Assembly (NCBI GenBank): GCA_016212525.1
Contig: JACRGD010000007.1
Span: 284,778-348,777 of the forward strand
Origin: Candidatus Micrarchaeota archaeon
GTDB lineage: Archaea > Micrarchaeota > Micrarchaeia > Anstonellales > Bilamarchaeaceae
Direction: 5' to 3'
DNA length: 64,000 nt
This document shows positions 35,755 to 55,080 of this stretch, piece by piece. Position numbers and translations under genes: made by a program. The notes under the pieces were generated by a model that did no database searches, was not told where the DNA came from, and saw only the letters and a program-made list of their open reading frames with translations. The first letter of the stretch is position 1. Every line of letters starts with the position of its first letter.

Positions 35755-36143
35755 TAAATATCCCTTCCATGTGGATCTTTCTTTGGTTTTCCCAAAAACC
35801 GATAGAGCCTCTCGATAAAATCATTGCTCACAGAATGCTCGATGCGATTGGCTTCTTCATGTATTTTTGCCAGAGGCATGCCAAGAGAATCGACCAGAAA
35901 TGTCTCGATCACGCGATGTTTAAAGTGCATATTCTGGGCGATCTTTAGGCCATCTGGAGTGAGCCGCACCTTACCATATTTTTTCATTGAAACATAACCC
36001 TCACTCGAGAGTTTCTGAAGAGTCATAGTAACAGTATTTTTCGAAAGTGAAAGTGATTTTGAGAGATCGATCGGACGAACACCCTCGCCGCCATCGAGCT
36101 TATCGATAAAACGGCAGTAATCTTCAATAGTCCTGATTTCCAT
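35754..36143 (-). CDS. DtxR/MntR-family metal-dependent transcriptional repressor
   Basis: A winged-helix region (LSLSKNTVTMTLQKLSSEGYV) is followed by HFKHRVIETFL. It is the first gene of the metal operon, and a 1-nt TAATG overlap couples it to the next gene. Confidence 0.8.
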   Translation of the reverse strand: MEIRTIEDYCRFIDKLDGGEGVRPIDLSKSLSLSKNTVTMTLQKLSSEGYVSMKKYGKVRLTPDGLKIAQNMHFKHRVIETFLVDSLGMPLAKIHEEANRIEHSVSNDFIERLYRFLGKPKKDPHGRDI

Positions 36144-38724: not shown

Positions 38725-41700
38725 TTAATCACCACTAGTAGATCCTCCATGACGATGCGGAAAGAATAATCTTTCGCCCATTGTTCCAGGGTGGAAACCA
38801 TTTGTTCCGCCATCAGGCATAGCACGACGATTGCTGTCCATATATGCAAAAGGTGCACGAAGAGTAAATGTTGAGTAGCCTTGATTAAGTGGACGGTTCG
38901 CAGGAAGAACAGTGCCATTTGCCATAGTTCTGCTTTCGCCAGATAAAATTACTGGCTCAACGGAGGTGTCAGGCACAAGAGAAGGAGAATCAAGATCGTA
39001 AGAGCGAACTTCAACACCCAGTGGTTCATATCTAGAGCGGAGATTGGCAAGAATCTGGGCCTCAAGTTGTTGTCTTTGTTCAGAGGGAATATCTCTCAAA
39101 CCATAGGCAGGCTGGACCATTATAATGGGCCGACCATCATCGCCAATAAGAAGATTAAGAGTTTGCCGGTATAATGTGTTTGGAGATCCCTCAATTGGAA
39201 TAATTATCTGTCTGATCCAGGGTTGTGCAACAGAACCTACTATTCCTCCAACCACAGGATGTGTGTTTGTCGGGACCTGGCAGGCTTCATTACCAGCCAC
39301 AAGACCATAGCGGAAAGAACGATCGAAATCTCCGGTTTCGCTAACACGATATTGTCGGGTAGAGGAACCATCAGAAACACTAACCGAGAAATCATGGTTG
39401 TTGGTCCACATATTCCAGAGAGCACCAGAATCAACCGATGAATGAGAGCAGACACGATCAAGTTCAGCCCTAAATTCAGGAGGGAATTTAAAGTCCCTAA
39501 AAGTTCCGTTTGCATGGGCTGAGAGTGCACGATCAAGAACTGCGATGGCCTGGGTAAATTGAGCCGAAGTGGAGGTATGGGAACCTATACGCTCGGCCCC
39601 GCCATTAGCTAAAGCAGAGAGAGTATTGCGATAAGTTACATACTGAAGGAAAAGATCGACATTGGAGCTTAGCCATTCTTCAGTAAGATTTGCAGATGGA
39701 ACCAGAGTCCTAAATAGGCGAACACCAGCTTCAATAAATTGATCCGGATGAGCAGAGACACTGGCAATAAATTCGTTCAGTCGTAATGGAGAAATAGCAC
39801 CTGAGCGTGAAAACTCATAGATGCTGTTTATCATGCGGAACCTGCGGTTTATGAAATCGGCCCGGGCATCATCGACAACCCTGCCAGAACCCCTAAGCCG
39901 GCCTAGCTCACCTGATACAGAATCAAATACCCGATTTATTGCATCGGAATGTGCGATTCCAAGCAAACCAGAATAATAAGAGTCAAGAGATGTTTGAGTG
40001 TAGCGGGCAGGAGCAAGAAGACGAACCATAAATCTTCGTGAAGATGCAGGATCACTAAAGGTTGCATATTCCTGAGCATCATGCCTTACATATCCATCAA
40101 AGCGATAACCAACTTGTTCTGCCATGATACGCGGATGATGACCTACCCGCATAGTAGCTAACTCTGGACTAAGAGTAAAGGGAGTTGCAGAAGCAGGAAC
40201 CCCCTCTACAATAAGACCCTGATTACTTGCATCTGTATATTCAGAGCGCTCTCGAGCATAGTTAATTAATAACTGGGCAAAATCGGCATACGCACGATCG
40301 TTTGGCATGGCCTGTCTGATAAGCTTAACATCAAAAACCCTAAATGGATTTGAAGTCTGCGAACCAATCTGGGGACTCCTCAGCATAAGCTCTCCTAGAA
40401 TTGGGAGTCTGCGAATCCTTCTTGGATGCAAATCCCGATTTGCACCGACAACCAGAACTCCACTGTCTCTTGCCTGTGCATCTAATTCAGATACCCGGCC
40501 AAGAAGTTCTTCTGAATGCGAATAGTTTCGAGCGCACAAATCAAGATAGATTGATCTTAAACCCTCTGGCAATCTGGATGCGTCCTCAAGTGCCATCCTA
40601 AACATATTGCCAAGGGCAGCATGAGACTCTGGAGGACTTGATCTAAGGCTAGATGCAAAAAAAGAAAGGACTCCATTAATTGGTTCAAGATTATTTTGAG
40701 GTCTTGGAAACAGACTAAATAGATCAAAGCGCGAATCAGTAGATCCAAGTGCACTACCTACCAAAAGAGAGCTCAGGGATTCGGGATTTGTAACGGCCAG
40801 GCGGGCACAAACATAATAGAGATCGGCTGAACCGGACGTAATAGTAGTGGCATCGAAAGACTCGTATTGACTCCACACACGATATGAATACCTGATTGCC
40901 TCATAATATTCCGAATATACAGAATTAATTCTCTCTAAAGGCACGTGTTCGACAATATAACGGGCAGACTCAACGATACTATCGATACGACTACGATTAG
41001 GCCCGCTAAAACCAACGGCATGTTCAATATCCCGTGAGATCAAAGCAGAAATCATAGATGACTCAAGACAATCAGCCAAAGTCGGCTGCACATGACCTCT
41101 CGCCTGAGCATATCTCATAGCCAGAGCGGCACCAACCGCCAAATCAGGATCCGCATGCGGATTTGAAGCGGCTTGCTGAATCTGCTGGGCCCGGGACACC
41201 AGATCAGCGGAAATTTGGATTAGACGTGCAGTATAAGACAAAGAGGAACTTTCATTAGGGTAACCAAAAACAATATCCCTAAACATAGGATCTGACCTAT
41301 GAGATATAAAAAATTCCAGGGCAGGAGCATACTGGGCAGCTGCAACATCAGGAGCAACACCATGCGCAACTGCATCTCGAACCAGATCGCGCATTGCAAT
41401 AACAAGCGGCCCTCCTCTTTGAGCAACTATTTGGTCTGCTTGAGCACAAAGTTCGCGACCCAATGAAGATTCAGGAACATTTCTTAGGCGCCCTACAGAA
41501 GCGGCATAGTCAGGATGAACGCGCTCAACTTCCCGCATAGTAAGATTACCACTACGAACTTCATCAACCAGACGCCAGAGAAAAATTCCTACAGTTCGAT
41601 TATCATCGGTTAGATGGGGCATGAGCAAACTTCTCACTCTGGCCCAGGCCTGCTCGTTTGAGACAATATTGTGAACAACATCACGCTCGAGTGCTTCCAC

Positions 41701-44700
41701 AGTTGCCAGATCAACATTTGTTGAATTTGCTAAAATAGACTGAGCAACCACGCGAACAGATGGAGATGGAGGAGCAATAGAAGCTACTGGTTCAGAGGTT
41801 TGAGGTGCCCTGGCAGAAGCTCTCTGATCCAGAGCAGCCAAGGCACTGGAAATACCCGCCCTATAATAGGAGGCCCTTTCTTCAGAAGACACAGACGCGG
41901 GATCTACACACCGGACATAAATAGATGATTTTTCTTCTCCACGCTTAAGAGTAAAGCGAACATATGTTTCATCACCTACCTGAACGGCGCCATCGAATCG
42001 ATAGGCTGCACCATCAGAAGCAGTAACCTGAACAGCCCCAGGACTTAGATCGGACCCAAGAACTGCGCCAGGACTCCTTGCACGGCCACTAACAACAACT
42101 GCAGATTCTGGAAGATCAAGTAAAAAGTCGGCACTTGAGGTGGAAGTTGAGGTTGTAGTAGTCGATGAGGCCTGGGAAACCGGAGCAGTCCGAGACATTA
42201 CTGGAGGTTGAGGAGTCCGTGTGCTTGTGGCATCAGGCATGGCAGAGCGATTCTCGCCATCAGCGACGCCGGCAGCGAGCTGAGCTAGAGGTTCTGCCAC
42301 CTCCTGAACAGGAATCCTTGGAGCAACACGTGTTTCAACGCGATTAGGCCTTTGTGGAGAGGGTCTTTGATTTGGCGGAACAGTAGGCAACTCATCAACT
42401 TCGATAACTTCCGGCTCAGAACCGGGAGGATTGATTGTGGTTGGTCCCTGATGCCTGGCCGATTCGGCAAGCGGTCCCGGTCGTGCAGAAGCATCAAACA
42501 AATCTACACCAGTGTGTACCCGAAGCTCGTCTGCAGTAGTAAAGAACCGATCTGCATTTTCCCGGCTAACTCTGCCCGCAGACACTTCCACATCTAATCT
42601 TGCACGGACATATTCACGGTAGCCCGAACCATAACTCGCTCGTTGCTCAGCGGTAATAGTACCGGCAGTAACCATCGCATCCAGATCATGGTTCATCTGC
42701 TCCTGGGTAGTATGACGACCTTCAAGAACCATATAGCCGAACTGATTTGATACACCAAGTTCGGGATGATTGGGGTCATTAATTCCATAACCAACCCACT
42801 GGCCAGCAGTATTTGCCCGATAAAGAGCAGCTGCAACTTCGTACATATTATGAACATCGTTTCCGCTAATGTTTGGATCACTCTGCATGCCTAAATGAAG
42901 AAGGGCAACATCAGCAGCACCCTGCTCGAGCTGATTGTGCTGGGCTCGTGCCTGGGGAGTTCCCATTTCATTTTGCAGGTTTGCCATTTCATCTGCATGC
43001 ATTGTGAAGCGATAATTATTACGTGCAATTGGACGAGGGGCAACGTTTCCCTGATAGGTGAGATTGGCAACTGATGGAACTGCTCCAAGACCTCCAGTTG
43101 CAGTTGCAAGGCCATAAACTCCTCCATCATGATCTGCAAGGACACGCGCACGCGCTGCGGCCATTTCCGGAGTAACCGGACGTGGGGTCGATGAAACGTC
43201 CCTAGACGCAACTGCGGCGGAATGTGCAACCTCAACCGGAGTAACGGCAACCGGATCCTCTGGATGTGATGCATTGTAATTATCCAGACCAGTAGTAACA
43301 TCGCCTATCAAAAACTCAGAAGAGGCATTTCCAAAGTCCCGGTGCAACACAGAAACATCATGAACAGGATTTCCATTTGCATCACGGACCTGCTGGCCGT
43401 TTTGCATAACCGGCTCGATGCGCATTGCGACTCCATCCATATCAATCGCAACCGCTGCAGTTCGTACAACCGTGCCGTCTCTTAATCGACCTACAGCATA
43501 ACCGCTGTTGGCAGAACGACGATCGCCAAGTGCAATTTCACTTGCGGCATTATGATAATCATAAAGACTTCTGAAAAATTCGGATCGACCTTCTTCAGTT
43601 CGCATCTCATCGTAGAAAGCACGAACTGCCGGAGCTGATCTTGGATCATTCAATGCAACAGATGGCTCGTCAATTATCTCATCACTCATGAGGGCAAGAC
43701 CATCGATATACATTTCCCTTATTGTCCCATCAGGCATTCGGACATTCTGCCAGGTTCCAACTAAATCATGGATGTCCTGCATAATTCCGTAGTTGACCTG
43801 CTCGGGATTTCCACTCTGATAGGTTCTTCCATTTTCAAATGTATAGCCATGATAATGACGGGCAGTAAGAATACCTTGTGTACGGGCCAACTCTTCACCC
43901 AGCGCGGCAGCCTGTAGATCCTCAGTTTTGACAAATATTCTTCGAGTAGTTGATGGAGCACCATTTTCCCCGGGAATTTCAAGAGTAACTGCATATGCAC
44001 CACTAAGCCCTGCACGATAACTAACCCCGGTTATAGATGCCCTCTCAAATCCAGGTATCGTATGAATATTGTGTTCAAGTCCGCCAAGGGCAACCAAATC
44101 TGCAAATGCGCGGGCACCCTCAAGAGCCTGTGCCATAGTAAGGGAAGTAGGCTCACGATAAGTAATTCCACGAGAAGCCAAAAAGCCACAAATTCCCTCG
44201 AACTCGATTCGTTGCGGGACATTTAATCGGGCGATATTATTTACAGAGTGCTTCATTGCCGCAGTACCTGAAGAAACAAATGATGCTCTTAATTGTTGAA
44301 ATTGTTCCGGGGTTGCACCATGAGAAGTCAGAAGTGCATCCAGAGCATCAAGATTTCCCCCTGATAAAAAGGCATCACGCAGCTGGTTTTTGAGGGCATC
44401 CCTTCTCGCACCTGGTTCGTGAATTAGTGCGGTCGCTATTGCATCTGCACCACCTTCTGCATATTGCCTAAGAAGCATTCTTTGCATTTCTGGATTAATT
44501 GGTCCATGACCTTCTGCTGCAAAGGACATTTGCGCCCGCATCTGATCAACTGAAGCAGTTGCACCAGCCTGATCTAAAGTATGATTTAAGGCAGTTGTAG
44601 TATCAGCCAGACTAGTATTAAGACCCGCAAAACCGGAAGTTCTTAGTGCTTCAGTGAGCGCAGGAACATCAAAACCCAAAGCCGTCAGTTGAGGGGCAAC

Positions 44701-47700
44701 CGCAGGAATGCCACGATCAACATAGCCATTTCTCAGAGATTCTGCTGCATTTGGAGAATAATGCTGAGCCCTTCTTTCGCTTTCAGTAGTAGTTGTAGGG
44801 TTAGTACGCACTCGGCCACTTTCATTAAATGCAGTAACCCAGTCGTGGAAGAATCGCTGTTGTTGCAATGGATTTCGTTCGGCAAGACCAACTGCAAGGC
44901 TTCTTGCAAGAACCGGGTTTCCAGAAAATGATCGCAATGAATCGACCACAAGTCTTCCGGTTTCTTGACCCAATAGTTCGATCGCCCGGGCTTCGAATTG
45001 AGGCGAATTGATAGAGCGAATCAGATCTCTTCCTTGCTTTATCGATCCGTTTGGAGCGCGAAGATACTGATCTGAGAGAGTTGCAAGACCTTCTGCAGCA
45101 TGAGGATCCAAAAGTGCATGTGCCATATTAACCGCACGCTCTGCATATTCGGTCTCGGGTCTAGGCATCTGTGGCATCCGTGGAGCTGGCTGCTCACTAA
45201 ATCGGGCATAGGCAGTAGAAACCAACCCCGGTTCGCTAGCAGTACCGATTCCAAAGCCCCGCATATAAGCCTGGAATTGGGCAGGTGTTCCGCGAGCTGC
45301 GGCCCTAAATGCCTCGTTGGAAGTAAGCAAGCGAACGGCTTCCTGCCCAGAGGAAGATAGAGTTGCCAGAAGTGGATCGACACTACCCTCACGACGAACT
45401 GCCGCACGGGCCAGTGCTGCAAGATCTTCAACAGAGCGAATTTCAGATGGAACAGTAAACTCATGTCTTCTTCTTTGCTCAGCACGCCTGAGTCTGGCAA
45501 GCGGATCGGCGCGGGGAACGGAAGTTGTAGAAGTAACACCGGGAGCAACCGGCCTAAGCGGCGCTGGAGTAGCTGCAACCGGCGCAGGCAGAACTCCCGC
45601 CCTCACAAGCGCCTCATGGGTCAATCGTAATCTCACCGGATCAGTAGCCCGCTGGAATTCAGGACGATTAGAAAGTTCGGCTACAACGCGAGCAGTATTC
45701 AAAGTACCAAGTGGATTGGAATTTGCAGCTGGATCCATAACACGCAGATTTCGAAATGCTACCTGCTCAGTAACCGGACCGGAACTACTTGCAAGTGCAG
45801 CAGCACGGACAACCTGAGCAGTTTGAGTATCTGAAATCGGAATTGTAGTAAAATCATTGGCATATGCTACTGCAGCAAGTTCAGAAGTGCGACTATTCGC
45901 TCGCATAACTGGAGCATATACTTCATGAATCGCCAGTGCAACTACAGCCATTGCAGGCGTGAGAGTTGGTGAAGTTGTAACTGGAGCTTCAAGAGGACGA
46001 ATGGCAACAGGAACTTGCCTGGCAGTGCCAAGAACCCGAGTCTGTGGAGCGACCCGGGCAGTAGTTGGAGAAGTACCATTAAGACCAGAAACAAATTCTG
46101 GATTCGAAAGCAAAAGGAGCGCGAGAGTTCCGACATCTGCAGGCAGACCAGCCAGGCCAGCTGCACGCTGAGCCTGCTCACGGGTTACCACTGCTGTTGA
46201 TGAACCCCGCTGCTCATGCAAAGAAGTTGCAAGAGCAACTGCAGATCGTAAATTTTCCCGCTCTGCCGGAGGCATGTTTGCAAATACAGGATCAGATGAA
46301 TTTGAACCGGAAAATAGACGCTCTCTAGTACGCGCAAAGTTTTCCCTTGCAGCAGAAACGAAATCAGTAAGTTCGGGAGTAACACTTGAGTAGCCTTCCA
46401 AAGTACCTATGAGTGCCTGGGTATTTGGCAATGTCTCGGATTCAGAAATATGATGCGCAAGGAACAGCCGCTCGCCTGCGCTCAAATAGCGACCCAAAGT
46501 CGCCTCCACTGAACGAAGAGCTGCCTGACTAGAAGCCGGAAGAGCACCAAGTATTGCATCTGCATGCGCCTCATAAGCAGCAATTGCATGTGATAGAGCA
46601 ACCGGATCCCGGGCCAGTGCACTGCCCTCGCCAGAAATCATACGCAAAACATCATGACGTAATTCGAGACTGTCTGGAACTCCTGAGAGTGCCATTGCCC
46701 GATTGAAGTTCTCGCGCGTCTGTGCATCGAGGGATTGTGAAAGAGTTCTGACCCGCTCCGAAAGTCGGGCATTGTACATTTGAGCGGCCTGGTATCGATT
46801 GACACCGAAAAATCCAGCCATTGCAAATCGATAAGCTCTTGCACGGAAACTCGTTCCGAAAACCAATGAAGAATTGGCCTCACCGACAAGCTGGAAACCG
46901 CGCATCAAGCCAGGCTGGGCAGCATTGAAGAAAATCAGGCCATATTCAAATAGACCGGCTCCAGGATCACTATGCCATGTTTCATAAACAGAGCCCACAC
47001 CGATCGCAACTCCGCCAAGGCCCATAAAATAGGCCAGACCAGTATTGACTCGTTGGAGATTGAGAAGGGTGGCTTCGCCAACTAGGGCAGTCCCGCTAGG
47101 TGCGAGTTCGCCGCCAAGTTCAGTTGCCAGTCCACCTAAACCATGACTAACTACACCAATGCCGGCAAGCGCAATCCCACCAAGTCCCAAAACCCTCTGA
47201 AGAGTAGTGAGATTCTCTGCACCGCCAACAGCTCGGGCCTGATCGAAATAACCGAAGGTCGATTCGCCAAGGAAGAATGGCGCAACAAGAACACCAAAAC
47301 CAGTTGCAGAGGCAAAACCTGCACCAAGAATTCTTCCAGCCATAGCTACATTTGAATAAACCCGCTCGCGCCGAACACCGCGCTCGACAAACTCCGCTGA
47401 ATCATAACGCTGGGTTCTTGCATTATCAACGTTGGTTTCAATTGTCATAAGCTGGCCGGGACTAAGAACGCCACCGGGGCTTTGTGTAATTGTGGCAAAC
47501 GCAGTTCCCAAAAATCCGAATGATCTGGTAAGTGAATCGAATGAGGATTGAGCCTGCCTTGCAGACACAGAGCCCCTAAAAGTCAAATTAGTCGCACTGA
47601 ATCCCGGAGTAAGAGTCGCAACTGTATTTGTGAAATCATCATCAACCTGCTCACTGATAGAAAGAATGCGATCGATATGACGTCTCTGATCAACAGTATA

Positions 47701-50700
47701 TGAAACCGGACGATAATGAACGCGCGCAGTCGGATCAGTATTTGGGATAGCGGCAAAGCCCAGATCAGCAAATACAGCAGCAGTATGGACATCGGTGAGT
47801 GTCAGACGTGCAGGTAATCCAAGTAGGGAATACCTTTGATTCAACTGATCGGCACGTAATTGTCTAAATTGAGAAGGCAAGGTACCGTCTTCAATGGAAG
47901 CGGCAACGTGAGTTGGATCTGCAATTGCACTGCCACCAAGCAGACCAAATTGATGCGCGCGATCTCGCATGACCGTGGCACCTTGAGGATCTAAGCGACC
48001 TGCAGCGTAGAGCCGATCTGCAGCAGCAAGAACAGTTGATTCTTCGCTTGCCATATGAAGTGCAACGTCACGTGCAGTCTCAGTTACTGATAAACGTCTA
48101 AGTCCATCAACATGATCTGCCTGAACCAAAAGGAACCGCTCTGCAGTTTCGCTAAGATCGCCCCGCGCTCGCAATAGACCAGTTCCACGGCGAAGCAGAT
48201 CAGGATGATGCAAAAGATAATCCATGACAGCAGTATCGCCACCAGTTTGAAGGGCATCGGCGAGTGCGTGCATGTGAACTGCGTATTGACGATCAACTCC
48301 GCCAAGGCCACGAGTCGGACCCGCGTCGCCCAGTTCAGTTACAATGCTTCGTGTGATCTCAATTGGAACCATATCACTTGCAGAGTTAAGATTTTCCCGC
48401 GCAGCAGCAAGAGCATGTGCTCGCTGCTCGGCTGCATTTGCATCAGCAGTTGCAGTGGCTGCAACCTGATCCAGATTTGCATCGCGCCGAACCTGTGCAC
48501 CATTTGGACTTAGAGTCCGATGGCCATGCGCATCAACATCATAATACACCCCTGCATATTGGCGGGCAGCAGCACGAAGAGCATCGGCAGTCCTTTGATT
48601 AGCCGTCTCCATATTGTAGAGCGTCTGACGCCCCTGATAAGTGGGAATAATGTTGGTTGAAAGATCATCGAAAAGCAGGTTGCCCGCCTGGACATGACCC
48701 GCCTCAATTTGACGTAGGGCCCGACCGGCCTGTCCCAAGAGGAACGCAGTGTCAAATTCTGCCATGCTTCCAGCTTCACGCTCCTCTGGACTGGCCTGTG
48801 CCAGCAGAACATCATGAGCACCAAATAGACCGACACGGATACTGCGCTCTCGAACCCGACCAGCTACACGCATTATTAATCGCTGTGCAGCTGCCAAATG
48901 ACCAGACCGGGCCTCGACTCTTGCACGCTCAAGATCATTATGTAAAGCCTGACCATCCACAATTGCAGTCGTGGTCGGGGCCAGATGATATCCGCCATCG
49001 CCATGAAGAACTACTTCCCGATCATGCATGACTCTGCCTGAAGAATCAGTAACCGAGGCAACAAGTTCCGTAACACTGCCATCAGCAGAAGTCGCAGTTC
49101 GCACAAGCCGGGCAGCCATATTGCGAATCGCAATAATTCGGGTTACCTGAGCATAGCCGGAACTAAAATCATGTCCTGCATCGCGAAGCCGATCCTGATT
49201 CAATTGGACAAACCCCGAACTCATAGGTTCAGTTCTGGATCCAACTTCAGAAATAGTTTGCTCGAAATTATCAGCAGCCCGAACCAATGCGAATCGGCCT
49301 GCAGTAGAGGGAACTGAACCGGCTGAAGTTACAACGTCCCGATGGAGCATGAAAGTTGCATTAGAGAGACCCAGACTGGCCTGATGCAGCATATTTGCCT
49401 GGGCCGTTAAATCCCGCGCATGCCTGCGCAAAATTTCGATCGCAAAGGCCTGATCATCATGGCCGGTTTCCCTCCTTGCAGTTTCTATTGCCGCAGCATA
49501 TTCAGGGCCACTTAGAGTAATTGCTGCCCTCTGATACAAAGCAGCTTCTGCAAATCTCGCCCCTGCCAGGTCGAGTGCACCCTGTGCATGAGTCATCCGC
49601 TCGCTTGCACGCACTGGATCAATAAGAGCTGCTTCACGGGAATAGAGAAGCATGTGAGAGGGGTTGGATGCACCAGAAGAAAATCTTCTTAATCGTGCAG
49701 ACTCACGCGCATAAGCCCTGGAAGTCGCTCCAAGAGCCATAGACTGGGTTCGCAATTCTGCACGAGCGTGCTCAAGCCGCATTTCCAAAGCGGAAAGATC
49801 GGCTTCTAAAATTTCACAAAGCTGGATTTGTGCAGAAAGAGCCTCGGAATAGACATGAGGCTCGCCATTTTCATTACGAACCATTGATGAACTACGCTGG
49901 CCCTCATAGCTCAGAGAAGGATTAAGTGACAGAATAATTGCACCGAAACTTTCTCCAGAGCGCATGCGGCGCTCCAGTTCAGCAAGTGGAGGAATTTGGA
50001 TTCCACTGGAAGTAGTAAAACCATGTTCATATTGGGCTGCAATTGTTGGATCATGACTAGCTGCAGCAAGAGTAACACTGTCAGCCATTGCACCAAGGAC
50101 TCCGATGTTTGCGCCCTGGCCGTTTTGAACCTCTAATAGAGAAAGTCGGGTAAAGCGGCCAAACATTGCACGTGCAGCCGGATCAGTAATTGCAGCAAGA
50201 GGAGCGCCACGGCTTAGATAGATCTGAGCTGCATTAAGTGATTCAGTTACGTTGGAATAGGTATTTGGATTGTTAATATTTCGACCAATTTCCAAGCGAT
50301 CCGGAGAATTGGTAGAATATGCCTGTGCAAATAGAAGAGCTGAAACTGCATGTGGCAAATCAGAAGTGAAGATCGAATCAAGTGCTGCTGCATAGTAACG
50401 GGCGGCATCTGCACGATTAGCAGGCGGTGCATGCGAAAGCGATTCGCGGGCATTTTCCAATTGAGATGAATACGAAGCGATTACTGGAGCAGATTGATCT
50501 GGACCAGATATCGCAATATGCCGAATCTGGGCAGAACTACCAAACAAAAGCGCAGTAGCCAAACGTAGTCTTTGCAGCTCTGAATCAGCAATTGTTTCAC
50601 CCCTATTGAGAATAGAAAGGGCATCATTAAGACGACCCAAAAGCCTCTGATATGCAGGATAGAGTTCACCGCATGCACGACGGTTTCTACATAAGACCTC

Positions 50701-52206
50701 AAGCCGATATCGGGATTCGCTAAGTGCAGTGACAGTTGAAAGGCGGGACATATTGAGATTTTGCTCAGAGGCAGCAGCCAAAATGACAGATCGGGATTGT
50801 TGATCGCCATGAAGATAAGCACGGGAAGCACCAAAGAGAGAACTGATTTGTTCAAATGGTGAGCCCGCGCCGATGTGAGCAAATAAATTAGCAATTATGC
50901 GGTTGTATCCACTAAGAGATTCTGCTCCAAAGTTACGTGGAATTCCAGAGCGGTCAGACGCAACTTCATGGGCAATTTCAACAAAACCAAAAATACGCTG
51001 GATGTTTTGAGAAGTAGGATCGAGTCGCAAGAGAGCAGCTCTGGTCTGCCTGAATTGTTCAGATAGTACTGCATCAGAGGGAACCTGAACTGCGGCTAAA
51101 AGAGTTTGAGTAAGAGAATGGATATCTGGATTTGGACCAAGAAGGGCAGCGATAAAGTTACGATCGGCAGGAAGATGGCCAAGTGAAATTGCTCTCGCAC
51201 TAAGAGAAATAAACTGGGCCAGCTCAGATTGCCCTGCAAGGGAAAATTCGATCGATCGTGTGCAAAGAGAAATGACATCGCGTCTTGGTGATTGGGATAA
51301 AATCTCAGTTGCACTTTCAAGTGCACCTCCAATTGAACTGAGGGTTTCAAGACCTGCACGATTTGGTAATCGACCCGAAGAAAGCGAATTTTGAATAGCC
51401 TCGAGCCGTTCTCGGGCGGCCTCCAATTGCCTTGAGAGAGCAGGATCCAGATTCCGCTCCATCAGATCGTCGCAATGACCTATGAGTCGCTCGACCCGCT
51501 CTGCGGTATTGGACCTTGCAAGAGTCAGATATTCTAAAAGAGAAGAATTTGAAGCGCGAAGGTTAGTAAGTAAAAATTCATTTGTTACTGAGGTATTTGA
51601 AAAATGTCTAAACACGGAACCATATTCAGGAAGCGCAGCCTGATCCAAAGATAAGACATCATGATTAGTCAGAAGAAGACCCACATAAGAGAGAGTAGAG
51701 GTTAGAAGCTCGGCATTTGGAGTCGAAGGATTTAGTGATCGAACAAAAGCAGCTCGAACCCCGGCAATCTCAGCTTGATCAAATCCAGCTTCGCGCATAT
51801 GCTGGACTGTTTCGACCAGAGATCCAAAATTTTCGACGCCAGCCCTAAGGGCATCACGCGCGGCAGGAGTAGGCGAACGCGCATAAGTTTGTGCAAGACC
51901 AGTAAGCGCACTAATTTCAGGGTTAAACTCCCTCTCAGCAGTGGCATCGAGCATACTTCGGACAAGACGCTCGACATAAGATGGAGTCGGAGGCAAAGTA
52001 CCTGCAAGTTGCCGTCCAAGATCCCGCACTGATTCGCGGGCAGCGTCTGCACGGGCAGCCGCATCGGAGAGGGGTGAGGATGCAGTTGGCTGACGGGTTG
52101 TGGGAGCACCTACAAGGGGAGCCAATGATTCACGCAGATGATCGGTAGCCTGGGCAGCTTGTTGATCAGCCAATTGTTCAGGAGTACGAAAATTTGGTCC
52201 AACCAT
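38725..52206 (-). CDS. Giant protein (4,493 aa) of unknown family: a lysine-depleted, Ala/Arg/Ser/Leu-rich multidomain protein
   Basis: A single uninterrupted 13,482-nt ORF with TAAATG coupling at both ends. Codon and amino-acid usage differ visibly from the flanks. There is no N-terminal signal peptide. Its sub-features are listed separately. Confidence 0.85.
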   Translation of the reverse strand: MVGPNFRTPEQLADQQAAQATDHLRESLAPLVGAPTTRQPTASSPLSDAAARADAARESVRDLGRQLAGTLPPTPSYVERLVRSMLDATAEREFNPEISALTGLAQTYARSPTPAARDALRAGVENFGSLVETVQHMREAGFDQAEIAGVRAAFVRSLNPSTPNAELLTSTLSYVGLLLTNHDVLSLDQAALPEYGSVFRHFSNTSVTNEFLLTNLRASNSSLLEYLTLARSNTAERVERLIGHCDDLMERNLDPALSRQLEAARERLEAIQNSLSSGRLPNRAGLETLSSIGGALESATEILSQSPRRDVISLCTRSIEFSLAGQSELAQFISLSARAISLGHLPADRNFIAALLGPNPDIHSLTQTLLAAVQVPSDAVLSEQFRQTRAALLRLDPTSQNIQRIFGFVEIAHEVASDRSGIPRNFGAESLSGYNRIIANLFAHIGAGSPFEQISSLFGASRAYLHGDQQSRSVILAAASEQNLNMSRLSTVTALSESRYRLEVLCRNRRACGELYPAYQRLLGRLNDALSILNRGETIADSELQRLRLATALLFGSSAQIRHIAISGPDQSAPVIASYSSQLENARESLSHAPPANRADAARYYAAALDSIFTSDLPHAVSALLFAQAYSTNSPDRLEIGRNINNPNTYSNVTESLNAAQIYLSRGAPLAAITDPAARAMFGRFTRLSLLEVQNGQGANIGVLGAMADSVTLAAASHDPTIAAQYEHGFTTSSGIQIPPLAELERRMRSGESFGAIILSLNPSLSYEGQRSSSMVRNENGEPHVYSEALSAQIQLCEILEADLSALEMRLEHARAELRTQSMALGATSRAYARESARLRRFSSGASNPSHMLLYSREAALIDPVRASERMTHAQGALDLAGARFAEAALYQRAAITLSGPEYAAAIETARRETGHDDQAFAIEILRRHARDLTAQANMLHQASLGLSNATFMLHRDVVTSAGSVPSTAGRFALVRAADNFEQTISEVGSRTEPMSSGFVQLNQDRLRDAGHDFSSGYAQVTRIIAIRNMAARLVRTATSADGSVTELVASVTDSSGRVMHDREVVLHGDGGYHLAPTTTAIVDGQALHNDLERARVEARSGHLAAAQRLIMRVAGRVRERSIRVGLFGAHDVLLAQASPEEREAGSMAEFDTAFLLGQAGRALRQIEAGHVQAGNLLFDDLSTNIIPTYQGRQTLYNMETANQRTADALRAAARQYAGVYYDVDAHGHRTLSPNGAQVRRDANLDQVAATATADANAAEQRAHALAAARENLNSASDMVPIEITRSIVTELGDAGPTRGLGGVDRQYAVHMHALADALQTGGDTAVMDYLLHHPDLLRRGTGLLRARGDLSETAERFLLVQADHVDGLRRLSVTETARDVALHMASEESTVLAAADRLYAAGRLDPQGATVMRDRAHQFGLLGGSAIADPTHVAASIEDGTLPSQFRQLRADQLNQRYSLLGLPARLTLTDVHTAAVFADLGFAAIPNTDPTARVHYRPVSYTVDQRRHIDRILSISEQVDDDFTNTVATLTPGFSATNLTFRGSVSARQAQSSFDSLTRSFGFLGTAFATITQSPGGVLSPGQLMTIETNVDNARTQRYDSAEFVERGVRRERVYSNVAMAGRILGAGFASATGFGVLVAPFFLGESTFGYFDQARAVGGAENLTTLQRVLGLGGIALAGIGVVSHGLGGLATELGGELAPSGTALVGEATLLNLQRVNTGLAYFMGLGGVAIGVGSVYETWHSDPGAGLFEYGLIFFNAAQPGLMRGFQLVGEANSSLVFGTSFRARAYRFAMAGFFGVNRYQAAQMYNARLSERVRTLSQSLDAQTRENFNRAMALSGVPDSLELRHDVLRMISGEGSALARDPVALSHAIAAYEAHADAILGALPASSQAALRSVEATLGRYLSAGERLFLAHHISESETLPNTQALIGTLEGYSSVTPELTDFVSAARENFARTRERLFSGSNSSDPVFANMPPAERENLRSAVALATSLHEQRGSSTAVVTREQAQRAAGLAGLPADVGTLALLLLSNPEFVSGLNGTSPTTARVAPQTRVLGTARQVPVAIRPLEAPVTTSPTLTPAMAVVALAIHEVYAPVMRANSRTSELAAVAYANDFTTIPISDTQTAQVVRAAALASSSGPVTEQVAFRNLRVMDPAANSNPLGTLNTARVVAELSNRPEFQRATDPVRLRLTHEALVRAGVLPAPVAATPAPLRPVAPGVTSTTSVPRADPLARLRRAEQRRRHEFTVPSEIRSVEDLAALARAAVRREGSVDPLLATLSSSGQEAVRLLTSNEAFRAAARGTPAQFQAYMRGFGIGTASEPGLVSTAYARFSEQPAPRMPQMPRPETEYAERAVNMAHALLDPHAAEGLATLSDQYLRAPNGSIKQGRDLIRSINSPQFEARAIELLGQETGRLVVDSLRSFSGNPVLARSLAVGLAERNPLQQQRFFHDWVTAFNESGRVRTNPTTTTESERRAQHYSPNAAESLRNGYVDRGIPAVAPQLTALGFDVPALTEALRTSGFAGLNTSLADTTTALNHTLDQAGATASVDQMRAQMSFAAEGHGPINPEMQRMLLRQYAEGGADAIATALIHEPGARRDALKNQLRDAFLSGGNLDALDALLTSHGATPEQFQQLRASFVSSGTAAMKHSVNNIARLNVPQRIEFEGICGFLASRGITYREPTSLTMAQALEGARAFADLVALGGLEHNIHTIPGFERASITGVSYRAGLSGAYAVTLEIPGENGAPSTTRRIFVKTEDLQAAALGEELARTQGILTARHYHGYTFENGRTYQSGNPEQVNYGIMQDIHDLVGTWQNVRMPDGTIREMYIDGLALMSDEIIDEPSVALNDPRSAPAVRAFYDEMRTEEGRSEFFRSLYDYHNAASEIALGDRRSANSGYAVGRLRDGTVVRTAAVAIDMDGVAMRIEPVMQNGQQVRDANGNPVHDVSVLHRDFGNASSEFLIGDVTTGLDNYNASHPEDPVAVTPVEVAHSAAVASRDVSSTPRPVTPEMAAARARVLADHDGGVYGLATATGGLGAVPSVANLTYQGNVAPRPIARNNYRFTMHADEMANLQNEMGTPQARAQHNQLEQGAADVALLHLGMQSDPNISGNDVHNMYEVAAALYRANTAGQWVGYGINDPNHPELGVSNQFGYMVLEGRHTTQEQMNHDLDAMVTAGTITAEQRASYGSGYREYVRARLDVEVSAGRVSRENADRFFTTADELRVHTGVDLFDASARPGPLAESARHQGPTTINPPGSEPEVIEVDELPTVPPNQRPSPQRPNRVETRVAPRIPVQEVAEPLAQLAAGVADGENRSAMPDATSTRTPQPPVMSRTAPVSQASSTTTTSTSTSSADFLLDLPESAVVVSGRARSPGAVLGSDLSPGAVQVTASDGAAYRFDGAVQVGDETYVRFTLKRGEEKSSIYVRCVDPASVSSEERASYYRAGISSALAALDQRASARAPQTSEPVASIAPPSPSVRVVAQSILANSTNVDLATVEALERDVVHNIVSNEQAWARVRSLLMPHLTDDNRTVGIFLWRLVDEVRSGNLTMREVERVHPDYAASVGRLRNVPESSLGRELCAQADQIVAQRGGPLVIAMRDLVRDAVAHGVAPDVAAAQYAPALEFFISHRSDPMFRDIVFGYPNESSSLSYTARLIQISADLVSRAQQIQQAASNPHADPDLAVGAALAMRYAQARGHVQPTLADCLESSMISALISRDIEHAVGFSGPNRSRIDSIVESARYIVEHVPLERINSVYSEYYEAIRYSYRVWSQYESFDATTITSGSADLYYVCARLAVTNPESLSSLLVGSALGSTDSRFDLFSLFPRPQNNLEPINGVLSFFASSLRSSPPESHAALGNMFRMALEDASRLPEGLRSIYLDLCARNYSHSEELLGRVSELDAQARDSGVLVVGANRDLHPRRIRRLPILGELMLRSPQIGSQTSNPFRVFDVKLIRQAMPNDRAYADFAQLLINYARERSEYTDASNQGLIVEGVPASATPFTLSPELATMRVGHHPRIMAEQVGYRFDGYVRHDAQEYATFSDPASSRRFMVRLLAPARYTQTSLDSYYSGLLGIAHSDAINRVFDSVSGELGRLRGSGRVVDDARADFINRRFRMINSIYEFSRSGAISPLRLNEFIASVSAHPDQFIEAGVRLFRTLVPSANLTEEWLSSNVDLFLQYVTYRNTLSALANGGAERIGSHTSTSAQFTQAIAVLDRALSAHANGTFRDFKFPPEFRAELDRVCSHSSVDSGALWNMWTNNHDFSVSVSDGSSTRQYRVSETGDFDRSFRYGLVAGNEACQVPTNTHPVVGGIVGSVAQPWIRQIIIPIEGSPNTLYRQTLNLLIGDDGRPIIMVQPAYGLRDIPSEQRQQLEAQILANLRSRYEPLGVEVRSYDLDSPSLVPDTSVEPVILSGESRTMANGTVLPANRPLNQGYSTFTLRAPFAYMDSNRRAMPDGGTNGFHPGTMGERLFFPHRHGGSTSGD
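39964..40107 (-). repeat. Internal protein module copy 2 (aa 4034-4081)
   Basis: YRFDGYVRHDAQEYATFSDPASSRRFMVRLLAPARYTQTSLDSYYSGL shares the YRFDG, Y.(T/R)F, VR, (P/A)A and SYY.G positions with copy 1. It starts 632 residues downstream of copy 1. Confidence 0.6.
41854..42003 (-). repeat. Internal protein module copy 1 (aa 3402-3451): YRFDG...VR...P...SYY.G
   Basis: YRFDGAVQVGDETYVRFTLKRGEEKSSIYVRCVDPASVSSEERASYYRAG aligns by eye with copy 2. Confidence 0.6.
42130..42490 (-). other. Pro/Ser/Thr-rich low-complexity linker in the giant protein
   Basis: The sequence is ARPGPLAESARHQGPTTINPPGSEPE...PPNQRPSPQRPNR...TRTPQPPVMSRTAPVSQASSTTTTSTSTSS. Confidence 0.6.
43400..44040 (-). other. PI3K/PI4K-like (atypical kinase) motif region of the giant protein (about aa 2723-2935)
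   Basis: RRIFVKTEDLQAAALGEEL (K2760) resembles IFKxGDDLRQDxL. ALGDRRSAN (D2895...N2900) resembles GDRHxxN. AIDMDG (D2922/D2924) resembles IDFG. The order and spacing match a kinase catalytic core. Confidence 0.4.
46800..47360 (-). other. Central Gly-rich hydrophobic cluster of the giant protein (about aa 1616-1802), putative membrane-insertion module
   Basis: Hydrophobic stretches include AMAGRILGAGFASATGFGVLVAPFFLG, VLGLGGIALAGIGVVSHGLGGLA, GLAYFMGLGGVAIGVGSVY, GLFEYGLIFFNAA and AYRFAMAGFFGV. GxxxG motifs recur. This is the only strongly hydrophobic region in the protein. Confidence 0.55.
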
Positions 52207-52524
52207 TTAGTTCACACTCTGATAGCAGAAAATTACAAACTCCTGCAAATTTTTAATGCGCTCATAAGAGGGAGCATTAGAACTACGAAGAATGAGAGTC
52301 TGACGGGTCCAGTGTTCAAGATCAGAAAGAAACCGCTTATGTTTTTGAAAAGAATTTGCATATTTTTCTTTTTCCTTTGAACCTTCCCAGATCGCAATAG
52401 CACCAGAAAGAGAAGTCAGAGTCAGATTTACTTTTTGAATTACAAGTTCCTCAACCTGATCGAGATTTTTCTCACTAACACCACCATCAACTCCCAGCAG
52501 GGAGGCCAAAGTCTGATCTGCCAC
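52207..52524 (-). CDS. Hypothetical protein (105 aa), first gene of the giant-ORF operon
   Basis: It has a GTG start with no Shine-Dalgarno motif and a TATA-like box at leaderless distance. Its stop TAA abuts the giant ORF ATG. No family was recognised. Confidence 0.5.
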   Translation of the reverse strand: MADQTLASLLGVDGGVSEKNLDQVEELVIQKVNLTLTSLSGAIAIWEGSKEKEKYANSFQKHKRFLSDLEHWTRQTLILRSSNAPSYERIKNLQEFVIFCYQSVN

Positions 52525-52546
52525 AAAATACTGAGTACATTGAGCG

Positions 52547-52553
52547 TTTTAAA
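52547..52553 (-). promoter_or_regulatory. TATA-like box (TTTAAAA) for the giant-ORF operon, leaderless geometry
   Basis: Exactly 22 nt separate the box from the GTG at 52524. No Shine-Dalgarno-like purine tract lies in between. Confidence 0.4.
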
Positions 52554-52671
52554 CTTAACTACAAGACCAGGCAAAGATACACTATAGTAATATACAACGA
52601 AAAAGTAGGAACTTTTTAGCAAATATAAATCTAAAAAGAGTGGGATTTTGGAGAAAAAAGTGAGTTTAATT

Positions 52672-52770
52672 CTAAATATCTTCACTTTCAACAATCTCAA
52701 AAGAATCACAGGACTGCGCCTGATCAGGTAAAAAATGAGCGTAAATGGAACAAAAGAAACCGGAAACCAT
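52672..52770 (-). pseudogene. Relic duplicated 3' end of the acylphosphatase gene (32-codon remnant ORF)
   Basis: It encodes ...SIYAHFLPDQAQSCDSFEIVESEDI*, compared with ...SIEYSFLPDQEQSCDSFEIVENEDTAE* at the intact acyP C-terminus (53325-53400). The upstream 70-odd codons of acyP are missing. Confidence 0.6.
52677..52743. repeat. Direct repeat copy A (acyP 3' end-like), flanking the hicBA cassette
   Basis: By eye, 52677-52739 aligns with 53336-53397 with 5 mismatches and a 1-nt indel. The shared core is TTCAACAATCTCAAAAGAATCACA. Confidence 0.8.
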
Positions 52771-52839
52771 TTGAGTGAAAATTACTGCAGCAGACTCACA
52801 ACAAATACATTAAAAAGTGAATAAGAGATTAATTATCTG

Positions 52840-53073
52840 GTGAACTTTGAGATGTACAAGTTATCGGCAACAGTAGAGAAAGATGGAAAATGGTACGTGG
52901 CCCATTGTATGGAACTACAGATAACTAGTCAGGGCAAAACAGTTGAAGAAGCACTGGCAAATCTAAAAGAAGCACTAGAACTATATGTAAAAAATGCTGA
53001 TTCGGATGAACTGGAACACCTAAAAACAGCCCATGATGAAGCTCCCTTAATTGCCACCATAACCGTGGGTTAA
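52840..53073 (+). CDS. hicB: HicB-family antitoxin (UPF0150-type, short form)
   Basis: Contains YKLSATVEKDGKWYVAHCMELQITSQGKTVEEALANLKEALELYV, the typical HicB N-domain. The start is either GTG 52840 or ATG 52852. It overlaps hicA by 1 nt. Confidence 0.75.
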   Translation: MNFEMYKLSATVEKDGKWYVAHCMELQITSQGKTVEEALANLKEALELYVKNADSDELEHLKTAHDEAPLIATITVG

Positions 53074-53306
53074 TGAAACTTCCAATCGTTTCTGGCATTG
53101 AAGTCATAAAAATTCTTGGTAAGCTGGGATTTAGACAGCTAGACCAGCATGGAAGTCACGTGATTCTAATTAAAGAAGCTCAAGGCCGGAAATTCAAACC
53201 AGTAGTGCCAGTACATAAGGAACTTGCCCCCGGCACACTCTTAAGCATAATTAAACAAGCCGGATTGACCCGAGATGAATTTATCAATATATATTACGGC
53301 AGATGA
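53073..53306 (+). CDS. hicA: HicA-family mRNA interferase toxin
   Basis: MKLPIVSGIEVIKILGKLGF...HGSHVIL...VPVHKELAPGTLLSIIKQAGLTRDEF matches the HicA/YcfA consensus. Confidence 0.8.
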   Translation: MKLPIVSGIEVIKILGKLGFRQLDQHGSHVILIKEAQGRKFKPVVPVHKELAPGTLLSIIKQAGLTRDEFINIYYGR

Positions 53307-53324
53307 ACTGAACAAATACCAGGA

Positions 53325-53627
53325 TTACTCAGCAGTATCCTCATTTTCAACAATCTCAAAAGAATCACATGACTGCTCCTGATCTGGTAAAAATGAGTAT
53401 TCGATAGATCGGACTTGTGCACCTTCTGGACCTTTAGTACACCAGGCAATCAAATCGCCCAGAGCATCAGAATCGCCCTCTGCATAAACTTCCACTGCTT
53501 TGCCATCAGGAGTGTTTCTTGCAAAACCAACCAACTGCAATTTATCTGCCTCACTCTTGACATTTGACCTAAATGAGACGCCCTGGACTTTTCCGATAAC
53601 GAAAATACGAACGCGAGAAATAATCAT
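53325..53627 (-). CDS. acyP: Acylphosphatase
   Basis: Contains VIGKVQGVSFRS (the GxVQGVxFR phosphate-binding loop) and FARNTPDGKAVEV. Its size is 100 aa. Confidence 0.85.
   Translation of the reverse strand: MIISRVRIFVIGKVQGVSFRSNVKSEADKLQLVGFARNTPDGKAVEVYAEGDSDALGDLIAWCTKGPEGAQVRSIEYSFLPDQEQSCDSFEIVENEDTAE
53336..53399. repeat. Direct repeat copy B (the genuine acyP 3' end)
   Basis: See copy A. This copy forms the last roughly 22 codons of the intact acylphosphatase gene. Confidence 0.8.
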
Positions 53628-53669
53628 AAGATGAAGATAATGAGAAAAAAATATAAGCAGACCGAATAC

Positions 53670-54596
53670 TTAATGCACTGCAAAGCTCAGATCCCCACTA
53701 CTCTCAATTATGTCTTCGCAGTATCTTAGGAGTTTGATGCATTTTTCAGACAATGAACGAAGGGCAATGATTTCGGATTTATCTTTTTTGGTCTTTAGAC
53801 CCTCTTCAAAGGACTTGAATTTGACAAGAAACAGCTCACGGGCCCTAAGATAGTCAGACCCCTCAGCTCTCGAGTTTATAAGAGAATCACACGAAAGAAC
53901 AAATATTTTCTGGGCTAGAGAGATCAGTTCCGAGAGTTCCCTGTTTTGTCCTATAAGCGAACGGTTGGTTGACAAATCTTCCAGATGATCACTTATCTTC
54001 TCGATGCTTTTTGCAGCCATTGCCTTAAACAAAACAATACGCATGTTTGTCCCGCTAATGCATATCTGGCGCAAAAGAAGCAAATATAGCCGATCGACAT
54101 CGTCCTCTTTTCGCGAGATCTCAACATGCACATCGGACCCGTCCTTAAAGGAGTTCGAGACCAGGGCGAACATGGAATTAGTAACTGCATAAGCACGCTT
54201 TATGACAGAGTCCAGATTGAGATCATCCGAAGTAAGAATTCTCAAAACAAGTTCTTTTTCGGATTCGTCAGTTATCTCAACACCAGATAAAACCCGCCTT
54301 GCTTCCTCAGCCAGGGTGCTTATATTTTTTCCGCTTAGAATGAGTCTTCCTGCTCCAGCGACATATGCAGAAACTATGTTTCGCATAGTAGACTCAGAAC
54401 TATCGGAGGCGACAATAGAAACCGATTTTAACTCTCGTGAATTCTCCCGAACGCTCAGAGTAATTGTTCCATCATCATTTTGGAGAGTGTGAACTGCTTG
54501 ACCCTTGCTAATTTGATTTCTCTCGATCCACTGATGGGGCAACGAAATGATGTAAGTATTTCTTCCAGTTATTTGTATTTTCCTCTGATCTTCCAT
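53670..54596 (-). CDS. Archaeal phosphate-uptake regulator (N-terminal AbrB/SpoVT domain plus PhoU-like repeats)
   Basis: The N-terminus is KIQITGRNTYIISLPHQWIERNQISKGQ (AbrB-like swapped hairpin). The following helical region of about 200 aa has the DHLEDL-type PhoU pattern. Confidence 0.7.
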   Translation of the reverse strand: MEDQRKIQITGRNTYIISLPHQWIERNQISKGQAVHTLQNDDGTITLSVRENSRELKSVSIVASDSSESTMRNIVSAYVAGAGRLILSGKNISTLAEEARRVLSGVEITDESEKELVLRILTSDDLNLDSVIKRAYAVTNSMFALVSNSFKDGSDVHVEISRKEDDVDRLYLLLLRQICISGTNMRIVLFKAMAAKSIEKISDHLEDLSTNRSLIGQNRELSELISLAQKIFVLSCDSLINSRAEGSDYLRARELFLVKFKSFEEGLKTKKDKSEIIALRSLSEKCIKLLRYCEDIIESSGDLSFAVH

Positions 54597-55080
54597 AAAT
54601 ACTCAACTCAATTGGTATATATCATACATACCACAATATATACAATTTACAAAAAGTTTATAAAGGGGCTCGCCTGCAAGATAATCATGAAGACATTGTG
54701 TGATCAGTACATGGCTCAAAGAAAAAAACCCAAACTGGGAATTGGTGCAGATGGAGATCCATCGATAAGAAAGGACATGGCCCTCTTAGAAAGACGATTT
54801 TCAATAAAGCCAGACCGAATCTAATAATAATTGAAGAAAATTGAAGATGAATAAAAACCAGACAAATTAAAATAGCGTAAAAAGAACTCTTTTTGAAAAT
54901 TAGAAATCACAAAATAAAGATCATTAATCGATGAACCTCAAGGCAAACGATTACTCATCCAGAAACATGGTTTGTTACTATTTTTTAGTACAAAATTCAT
55001 CAGAAGTTTCCGTCTTTTGGGAAAGAATAGATCAAATCATTCCAGATTTTCGGAAAGAAATAGAAAATAAGAGAAATTAA

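Follow-up and report, generated by a model that had tools for sequence, protein, structure and literature searches.

Introduction

How does a small toxin-antitoxin cassette come to lie between an intact housekeeping gene and a second copy of that gene's own 3' end? The question is raised by a hicBA locus in a metagenome-assembled genome (MAG) of a Candidatus Micrarchaeota archaeon (GCA_016212525.1; 1.47 Mb in 10 contigs, 89.6% complete), within the 64,000-nt stretch that was analysed here and is referred to below as the window, which lies on a contig of 377 kb. Few prokaryotic genes are as mobile as those of toxin-antitoxin pairs and, to our knowledge, most chromosomal copies of these pairs have no known moving vehicle or enzyme. 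A first-pass annotation of the window had read the duplicated gene end as the scar of a site-specific insertion that regenerated the acylphosphatase gene acyP, and had proposed that the detached copy might also mark the arrival of the giant-gene operon lying next to it.

Results

The end of acyP is directly repeated on either side of hicBA

The locus comprises the following features, given by window coordinates and strand:

52207-52524, minus strand: 105-aa open reading frame (ORF) that leads the 4,493-aa giant ORF (region map)
52666..52676, minus strand: tail behind the relic core, with an early TAG at 52672-74 and a TAA at 52666-68; homology uncertain (5/11 matches)
52672-52770, minus strand: 32-codon orphan ORF that contains the relic; no Pfam match
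52677..52739, minus strand: orphan 3' end of acyP (the relic), 57/63 identical to 53336-53397
52740..52839, plus strand: spacer of unassigned origin and AT-rich promoter-like stretch upstream of hicB (alignments of five cassettes)
52840..53073, plus strand: gene for a predicted HicB-like antitoxin, 77 aa when read from GTG (DUF7387, 6.7e-07)
53073..53306, plus strand: hicA, predicted toxin gene, intact, 77 aa (PF07927, 4.1e-17)
53307..53335, no strand: 18-nt gap separating the convergent stops of hicA and acyP, followed by the final three sense codons and the stop of acyP, outside the repeat core
53336..53397, minus strand: gene-attached repeat copy, within intact acyP (repeat search, BLAST and codon comparison)
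53325..53627, minus strand: acyP, acylphosphatase, 100 aa (PF00708, 1e-21, profile positions 2-85 of 85)

A repeat search of the window returned positions 52677-52734 and 53336-53393 as an ungapped 58-nt direct repeat (53/58 identical) with a spacing of 659, to which BLAST adds a 1-nt indel in a T-run, extending the pair to 63 nt (52677-52739 versus 53336-53397; 57/63 identical, 90.5%). This exact alignment bears out the coordinates, the five mismatches and the single indel that had been read by eye. The repeat corresponds to codons ~76-96 of acyP. The DNA between the two copies (~585 bp, within a 659-bp unit) contains only the intact hicB-hicA pair, and the earlier statement that the repeats enclose nothing but these two genes holds by both ORF and Pfam content.

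The pair is unique at every scale that was searched. A 24-nt core shared by both copies has just two occurrences in the window even when three mismatches are tolerated, against an expectation of zero from 100 shuffles, and the 1.47-Mb genome holds only these two copies of the acyP-end repeat; the core (24-25 nt) is absent from 185,579 species genomes, represented by one genome per species. The further core copies that the first-pass annotation had proposed to look for were thus found neither in this genome, beyond the two, nor in the species collection. Pairs of short direct repeats separated by 0.2-8 kb are themselves rare, with only six genome-wide.

Both copies lie in one reading frame and reach a TAA at the equivalent in-frame position (52666-68 and 53325-27), the relic carrying an additional TAG at 52672-74, two codons ahead of its TAA. 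In the stretch from the core to the TAA, 5/11 bases match, the three codons upstream of the core are scrambled, and the differences between the copies are distributed non-uniformly across the 84-nt register (P = 0.003). Similarity beyond the 63-nt core is not significant, and these 63 nt were therefore treated as the secure repeat. The suggestion that the similarity runs on in frame beyond the core thus has weak support.

At the protein level, the relic matches residues 74-98 of AcyP with 76% identity (tblastn). In an alignment with 34 orthologues, 20/25 residues are alike between the two copies, which are much nearer to each other than either is to any orthologue. The product of acyP matches the NCBIfam acylphosphatase models below their equivalog cut-offs. 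Since the gene-attached copy completes the Pfam acylphosphatase domain and the other is an orphan 3' fragment, the arrangement supports the reading of the two copies as traces of an insertion that did not disrupt acyP.

Neither copy forms a hairpin on either strand, their folding being no better than that of shuffled sequences (z -0.6 to +0.9). Terminal inverted repeats of the insert were not found in the repeat search of the window, Rfam gave no match in 51500-55000 at E values up to 1, and the window contains no tRNA. The idea of an integron cassette bounded by attC sites was rejected, because the repeat has no hairpin on either strand and is hence not attC-like, and because the window carries no integrase.

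The cassette encodes a predicted toxin-antitoxin pair

HicAB modules were reportedly described as type II toxin-antitoxin systems by Makarova et al. in 2006. The pair in the window resembles them in combining a HicA domain with a small HicB-like partner, in the order hicB-hicA, in the overlap of the hicB stop with the hicA start (TAATG) and in a patchy distribution tied to insertion and deletion variation, and is accordingly a predicted toxin-antitoxin pair. HicA scores 62.5 bits against PF07927 (cut-off 27). HicB scores 30.0 bits against DUF7387 (cut-off 27.9), with UPF0150 (weak) and PHD_like below their cut-offs and no match in PADLOC or NCBIfam. Its likely start is the ATG at 52852, preceded by a GGTG motif at 52839-52842, which gives a protein of 73 aa; the homologues in relatives begin with MYKLS and the 73-aa form is on record. 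Unlike the HicB of described modules, this 73-77-aa protein has no recognisable DNA-binding domain.

Relatives were gathered through the thermosome gene, and all of them are named Candidatus Micrarchaeota, Bilamarchaeaceae or Anstonellales, which makes the host a DPANN archaeon. Using hicA homologues, hicBA was found in 15 of 61 relatives, never beside acyP. Four cassettes within the genus share 67-72% DNA identity with that of the window, the similarity being confined to 52810-53299, that is, to a short promoter stretch and the two genes. Thus, only the last ~30-40 nt of the spacer at 52740..52839 are common to the related cassettes, DNA homology starting at ~52810, and on the hicA side the homology stops at ~53299. 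In three of these four genus cassettes hicA is broken; both genes of the window cassette are intact.

In a wider collection, 45 relatives of HicA were found, the closest 84% identical; several bear the name Micrarchaeota HicA, and the genes flanking them are unrelated housekeeping genes. Among viral contigs, the best HicA relative shares 51% identity, which is uninformative as to viral carriers. The patchy occurrence of hicBA at differing loci points to a mini-cassette that is mobile in this lineage, in agreement with the location of hicAB in insertion/deletion variants of ANME-1 archaea (PMC13385816).

Two further hicBA loci are bracketed by repeats of their own

The bracket was sought at 30 hicBA loci in relatives (31 with the window) by comparing the two flanks of each cassette over 600-700 nt. 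It is present at two of the 30. In G013 (contig C30), a 64-nt repeat of 97% identity, its copies 690 nt apart, lies in intergenic DNA, with a convergent Fic gene on one side and a superoxide dismutase gene on the other (names assigned from sequence only). In G004 (contig C4), a 26-nt repeat of 96% identity spans the promoter and start codon of the downstream gene. Bracketed loci thus number 3/31 when the window is counted, and no bracket was detectable at the remaining 28, nor in four further metagenome contexts of the cassette, in which HicA is 70-82% identical.

The repeats of the three bracketed loci are mutually unrelated, and alignment between the loci is limited to the hicBA genes. As a control, 400 random pseudo-cassettes of 460 nt were drawn from this genome, and the sole match among them was the acyP pair itself; the comparison of 2/30 with 0/399 gives P ~0.005 (hypergeometric). 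The window and G013 are alike in geometry, with repeats of 63 and 64 nt and spacers of ~20-35 nt on the hicA side and ~100-140 nt on the hicB side. For part of the G013 repeat, a weak third copy exists at another place in the G013 genome, so that this repeat may include a small repeated motif.

Two other repeat pairs in the genome under study were considered and set aside. An AAA_14 ATPase gene flanked by a perfect 58-nt repeat was first taken as a parallel and then dropped as support: this repeat is a palindrome, and the homologous genes of relatives bear palindromic motifs of their own on both sides, so that the AAA_14 bracket is probably a different phenomenon. A 51-nt pair on contig C8 corresponds to two tRNA genes with similar promoters.

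The species proved isolated in every collection searched. Its AcyP matches only itself among 5.8 billion protein clusters (from a collection of 15 billion proteins), the eight neighbouring proteins are all singleton clusters at 90% identity, and the best match in metagenome contigs reaches 47% identity. Across 40 species of the genus there is no DNA match outside hicBA, and a query with the joined flanks of the G013 locus returned no empty site.

The giant-gene operon is not part of the bracketed unit

The block orf105-giant-o167-o291-o155 is conserved in G009, the closest relative (89% identity in the thermosome), where it lies on another contig, directly behind a gene named from its sequence as CorA-like (Mg transporter), with no acyP relic there. 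The repeat does not bracket the giant-gene operon, which from this gene order is a conserved native block. A repeat enclosing the 17-kb giant block was rejected, since there are only two copies, 659 nt apart, and the G009 block stands elsewhere without a relic. Nor is there support for the relic as a sign of where the giant locus arrived, the repeats bracketing hicBA alone; the hicBA event accounts in full for the relic.

Behind acyP, 12-15 of 20 relatives have a common set of three genes (c2, c1 and c0, the last DNA ligase-like by sequence). This order is broken directly behind acyP both in the present genome, where c1 and c0 are located on contig C8 with no acyP fragment nearby, and in G009, where acyP is followed 57 nt later by a homologue of the dtxR-like gene of the window (35754-36143). 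The 3' flank of acyP is therefore a synteny breakpoint in both genomes. The notion of a recombination hotspot survives to that extent, but not as an entry of the giant locus through the repeat.

Discussion

The reading that we prefer, to which we would give about an even chance, is that a hicBA cassette was inserted without a recombinase, that a long stretch of its target was duplicated in the process, and that addiction then guarded the insert against deletion. What supports it is directly observed: the repeat and its uniqueness, the content of the cassette, the lack of a recombinase, and the recurrence of brackets at related cassettes. From these we infer the direction of the event (an insertion), the original single-copy state, the joining chemistry and the role of addiction. 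The acyP scar taken alone is small and fairly old; it is supporting evidence for the recombinase-free idea and not its demonstration.

Along this route, a hicBA cassette of ~0.5 kb together with some flanking DNA (~585 bp in total) would have entered at the very end of acyP by a joining process that needs no element-encoded recombinase, and ~63 nt of the target would have been duplicated. The gene would have retained a full-length frame, its final three residues and stop presumably supplied by the insert, and its attached copy would have stayed under selection. Meanwhile, the old 3' end, pushed beyond the cassette, would have decayed to its present ~9.5% divergence, one indel and early stop. 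Before the event, acyP is predicted to have ended in ...VESEDI*. As to the chemistry, a linear fragment may have been end-joined to the broken ends of two genome copies, the breaks lying ~63 nt from each other, or fill-in may have followed staggered breaks. Direct repeats normally promote the precise deletion of intervening DNA. Losing an addictive toxin-antitoxin pair, however, would be counter-selected and the scar thereby kept, so that such scars may survive preferentially around toxin-antitoxin and restriction-modification cassettes.

Nobusato et al. reportedly described, in 2000, insertion with long target duplication for restriction-modification gene units. In a later bacterial survey, such units were found between unique, target-derived direct repeats of more than 30 bp, with no mobility gene, transposase, integrase or inverted repeats; the length of the repeat varies by case, and one repeat, of 46 bp, overlaps a gene's 3' end (Furuta, Abe and Kobayashi 2010; PMC2853133). 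The acyP locus shares with these cases a direct repeat above 30 bp (63 nt here), unique in the genome rather than dispersed, an insert without mobility gene or terminal inverted repeats, and recurrence at other sites with different repeats of variable length (64 nt in G013, 26 nt in G004). It departs from them in its cargo, a type II toxin-antitoxin pair, and in its DPANN archaeal host: the survey retained no archaeal case and took comparison with the empty site as its criterion (PMC2853133), whereas the acyP locus is described here in its occupied state.

A second way to dispense with a recombinase, and the main rival, is the import of an allele, which we regard as unlikely. Here, DNA from a close relative carrying hicBA beside acyP would have undergone homologous recombination within acyP and an illegitimate join at codon ~76 of the resident gene, displacing the resident 3' end and leaving it downstream as an orphan. 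Such homology-facilitated illegitimate recombination would produce exactly the order observed, with a new 3' end, the cargo and then the old 3' end, and both the mechanism and the orphan 3' ends that result from it have been described (PMC5361080). In this regard, Rhs, CDI and T6SS effector-immunity loci, for which a recombinase-free mechanism was proposed, show a new 3' end with its cargo followed by the displaced old 3' end (PMC5361080), as the acyP locus does. Those loci, however, swap the toxin tips and immunity genes of one system, while acyP encodes a housekeeping enzyme that keeps its end and whose cargo is unrelated.

The differences between the two copies lean toward synonymous changes, with 3/6 of the single-base differences in the core against ~20% expected (P ~0.04, in a simulation run with five changes), and cluster where orthologues also vary, in the tail beyond FEIVE and in the EYS linker. 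The synonymous excess is as compatible with an imported, diverged allele as with decay, but it is weak, and it would also arise if the duplication had formed in place and selection had then acted on the gene-attached copy. A donor lineage with the cargo beside acyP was not found among 61 relatives or 40 species of the genus, which is a weak test given the sparse sampling. In addition, the G013 bracket is intergenic and that of G004 covers a promoter and start codon, so that anchoring in a gene end is not general to these cassettes. Insertion with target duplication remains the reading that we favour over allelic import.

The site-specific alternative, put forward at first pass, would take the two copies as attL and attR of an element that targeted the 3' end of acyP. 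A larger element would since have decayed to its toxin-antitoxin module, or a mini-element would have been moved in trans by one of the two tyrosine recombinases of the genome. Integrated elements of archaea do typically have direct repeats in the 3'-distal region of a protein gene that they regenerate: in Thaumarchaeota, 14/68 such elements lie in 3'-distal parts of protein genes, and crenarchaeal att sites measure 29-69 bp (PMC6563490). The acyP locus is similar in having a repeat over the end of a protein gene, a stop that the insert would supply and a length within the crenarchaeal range. Toxin-antitoxin modules are, moreover, plausible last survivors of a decaying element, and the genome does contain two tyrosine recombinase genes (PF00589).

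These two genes, however, are located on contigs C8 and C2 and not on the contig of the window; Pfam searches revealed no integrase or transposase domain in the insert and no integrase in the window, whereas the archaeal elements are defined by their integrase. The smallest cryptic element in the thaumarchaeal survey, at 2.6 kb (PMC6563490), is about four times the size of the ~0.6-kb insert. The core is not reused in this genome or in the species collection, nor is acyP a recurrent target, as a second copy of its own end was found at none of 46 acyP loci in relatives (within 6-10 kb). There are, further, three equally tight hicBA brackets with unrelated repeats, which make improbable both a single integrase with a defined att site and three separate decays of larger elements to exactly hicBA. 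The earlier interpretation therefore divides: an insertion scar that regenerated acyP is upheld by the complete domain and the orphan fragment, while a site-specific attL/attR event, although it fits the form of repeats at a regenerated gene end, is not supported and seems to us quite improbable.

That the pair is not a scar at all, but an assembly artefact or the remnant of a second acyP paralogue beside hicBA, is very improbable: the genome is an incomplete MAG and some relatives have two acyP-like matches, but a chimeric join would switch within the repeat and not leave two copies that have diverged and are 585 unique bases apart, the contig is long, the copies are far closer mutually than to any orthologue, and no 5' part of a second acyP exists anywhere in the genome.

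The window and two loci of the same genus thus present hicBA without a mobility gene, bracketed by duplications of local sequence. With them, the kind of scar known from restriction-modification units of bacteria would also be found around a toxin-antitoxin pair, and in an archaeon whose genome is tiny. It is conceivable, if somewhat doubtful at present, that small toxin-antitoxin cassettes of DPANN archaea spread in general without a recombinase, duplicating 25-65 nt or more at the point of entry and thereby sparing the neighbouring genes, and that addiction blocks the repeat-mediated deletion that would otherwise follow. Such a route is possibly wider than DPANN archaea, and the locus described here would gain in interest if it proved general. 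The repeats might also let the cassette leave in circular form together with one copy of the target end, and such a circle could enter the genomes of relatives again through homologous recombination. If this idea is correct, gene-end relics such as that of acyP would constitute a readable record of the movement of addiction modules.

Gene order around acyP

In most relatives (12-15 of 20; window 53670-54596 compared with loci L033-L052), the thermosome gene is followed by the acylphosphatase gene acyP and then by three convergent genes, c2, c1 and the DNA ligase-like c0. The genome under study and its closest relative, G009, have in common an AbrB/PhoU-domain gene inserted between the thermosome gene and acyP, and in both of them the standard neighbours downstream of acyP have been lost. 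In the former, c1 and c0 now lie on another contig (C8:561876-565805).

hicBA cassettes in the genus

Two further hicBA toxin-antitoxin cassettes, in related genomes, are each placed between direct duplications of local sequence:

G013:C30, L154 1279-2032: hicBA bracketed by a 64-nt intergenic repeat
G004:C4, L064 ~1188-1751: hicBA bracketed by a 26-nt repeat that spans the next gene's promoter and ATG

Among the four DNA-similar hicBA cassettes of the genus, three carry a truncated or frameshifted hicA together with an intact hicB (L057 in G018:C1, L153 in G003:C39 and L154 in G013:C30, the last of these being frameshifted), a pattern that looks like the usual toxin-first decay.

Other repeats in the genome under study

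A perfect 58-nt direct repeat was also observed on both sides of a lone ATPase gene:

C5:78284-79614 (L156 3285-4615), 206 kb before the window: AAA_14/DUF4143 ATPase gene with its 58-nt repeats

With PADLOC, this gene hits the candidate defence family PDC-S01 (2e-31). The repeat around it is imperfectly palindromic, with a DNA fold z of -3.3. Motifs both upstream and downstream of AAA_14 gene homologues are present in 7-8 of the 17 homologous loci in the genus, being locus-specific and mostly palindromic; they may act as operator-like sites or as sites of recombination.

A 51-nt repeat pair on C8 (290766-290816 and 291953-292003; L157) corresponds to two tRNA genes with a common promoter and 5' end, one of them tRNA-Ala(CGC) and the second an intron-containing gene that received no ARAGORN call.

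The giant ORF

Window 38725-52206: 4,493-aa ORF without a Pfam match

The G+C content of this ORF (46-53%) exceeds that of its surroundings (~40%). Its orthologue in G009 shows 31-46% identity in 750-residue pieces, rising to 50% over the kinase-like region, and lies within a conserved four- to five-gene block. The giant ORF is thus native, though fast-evolving.
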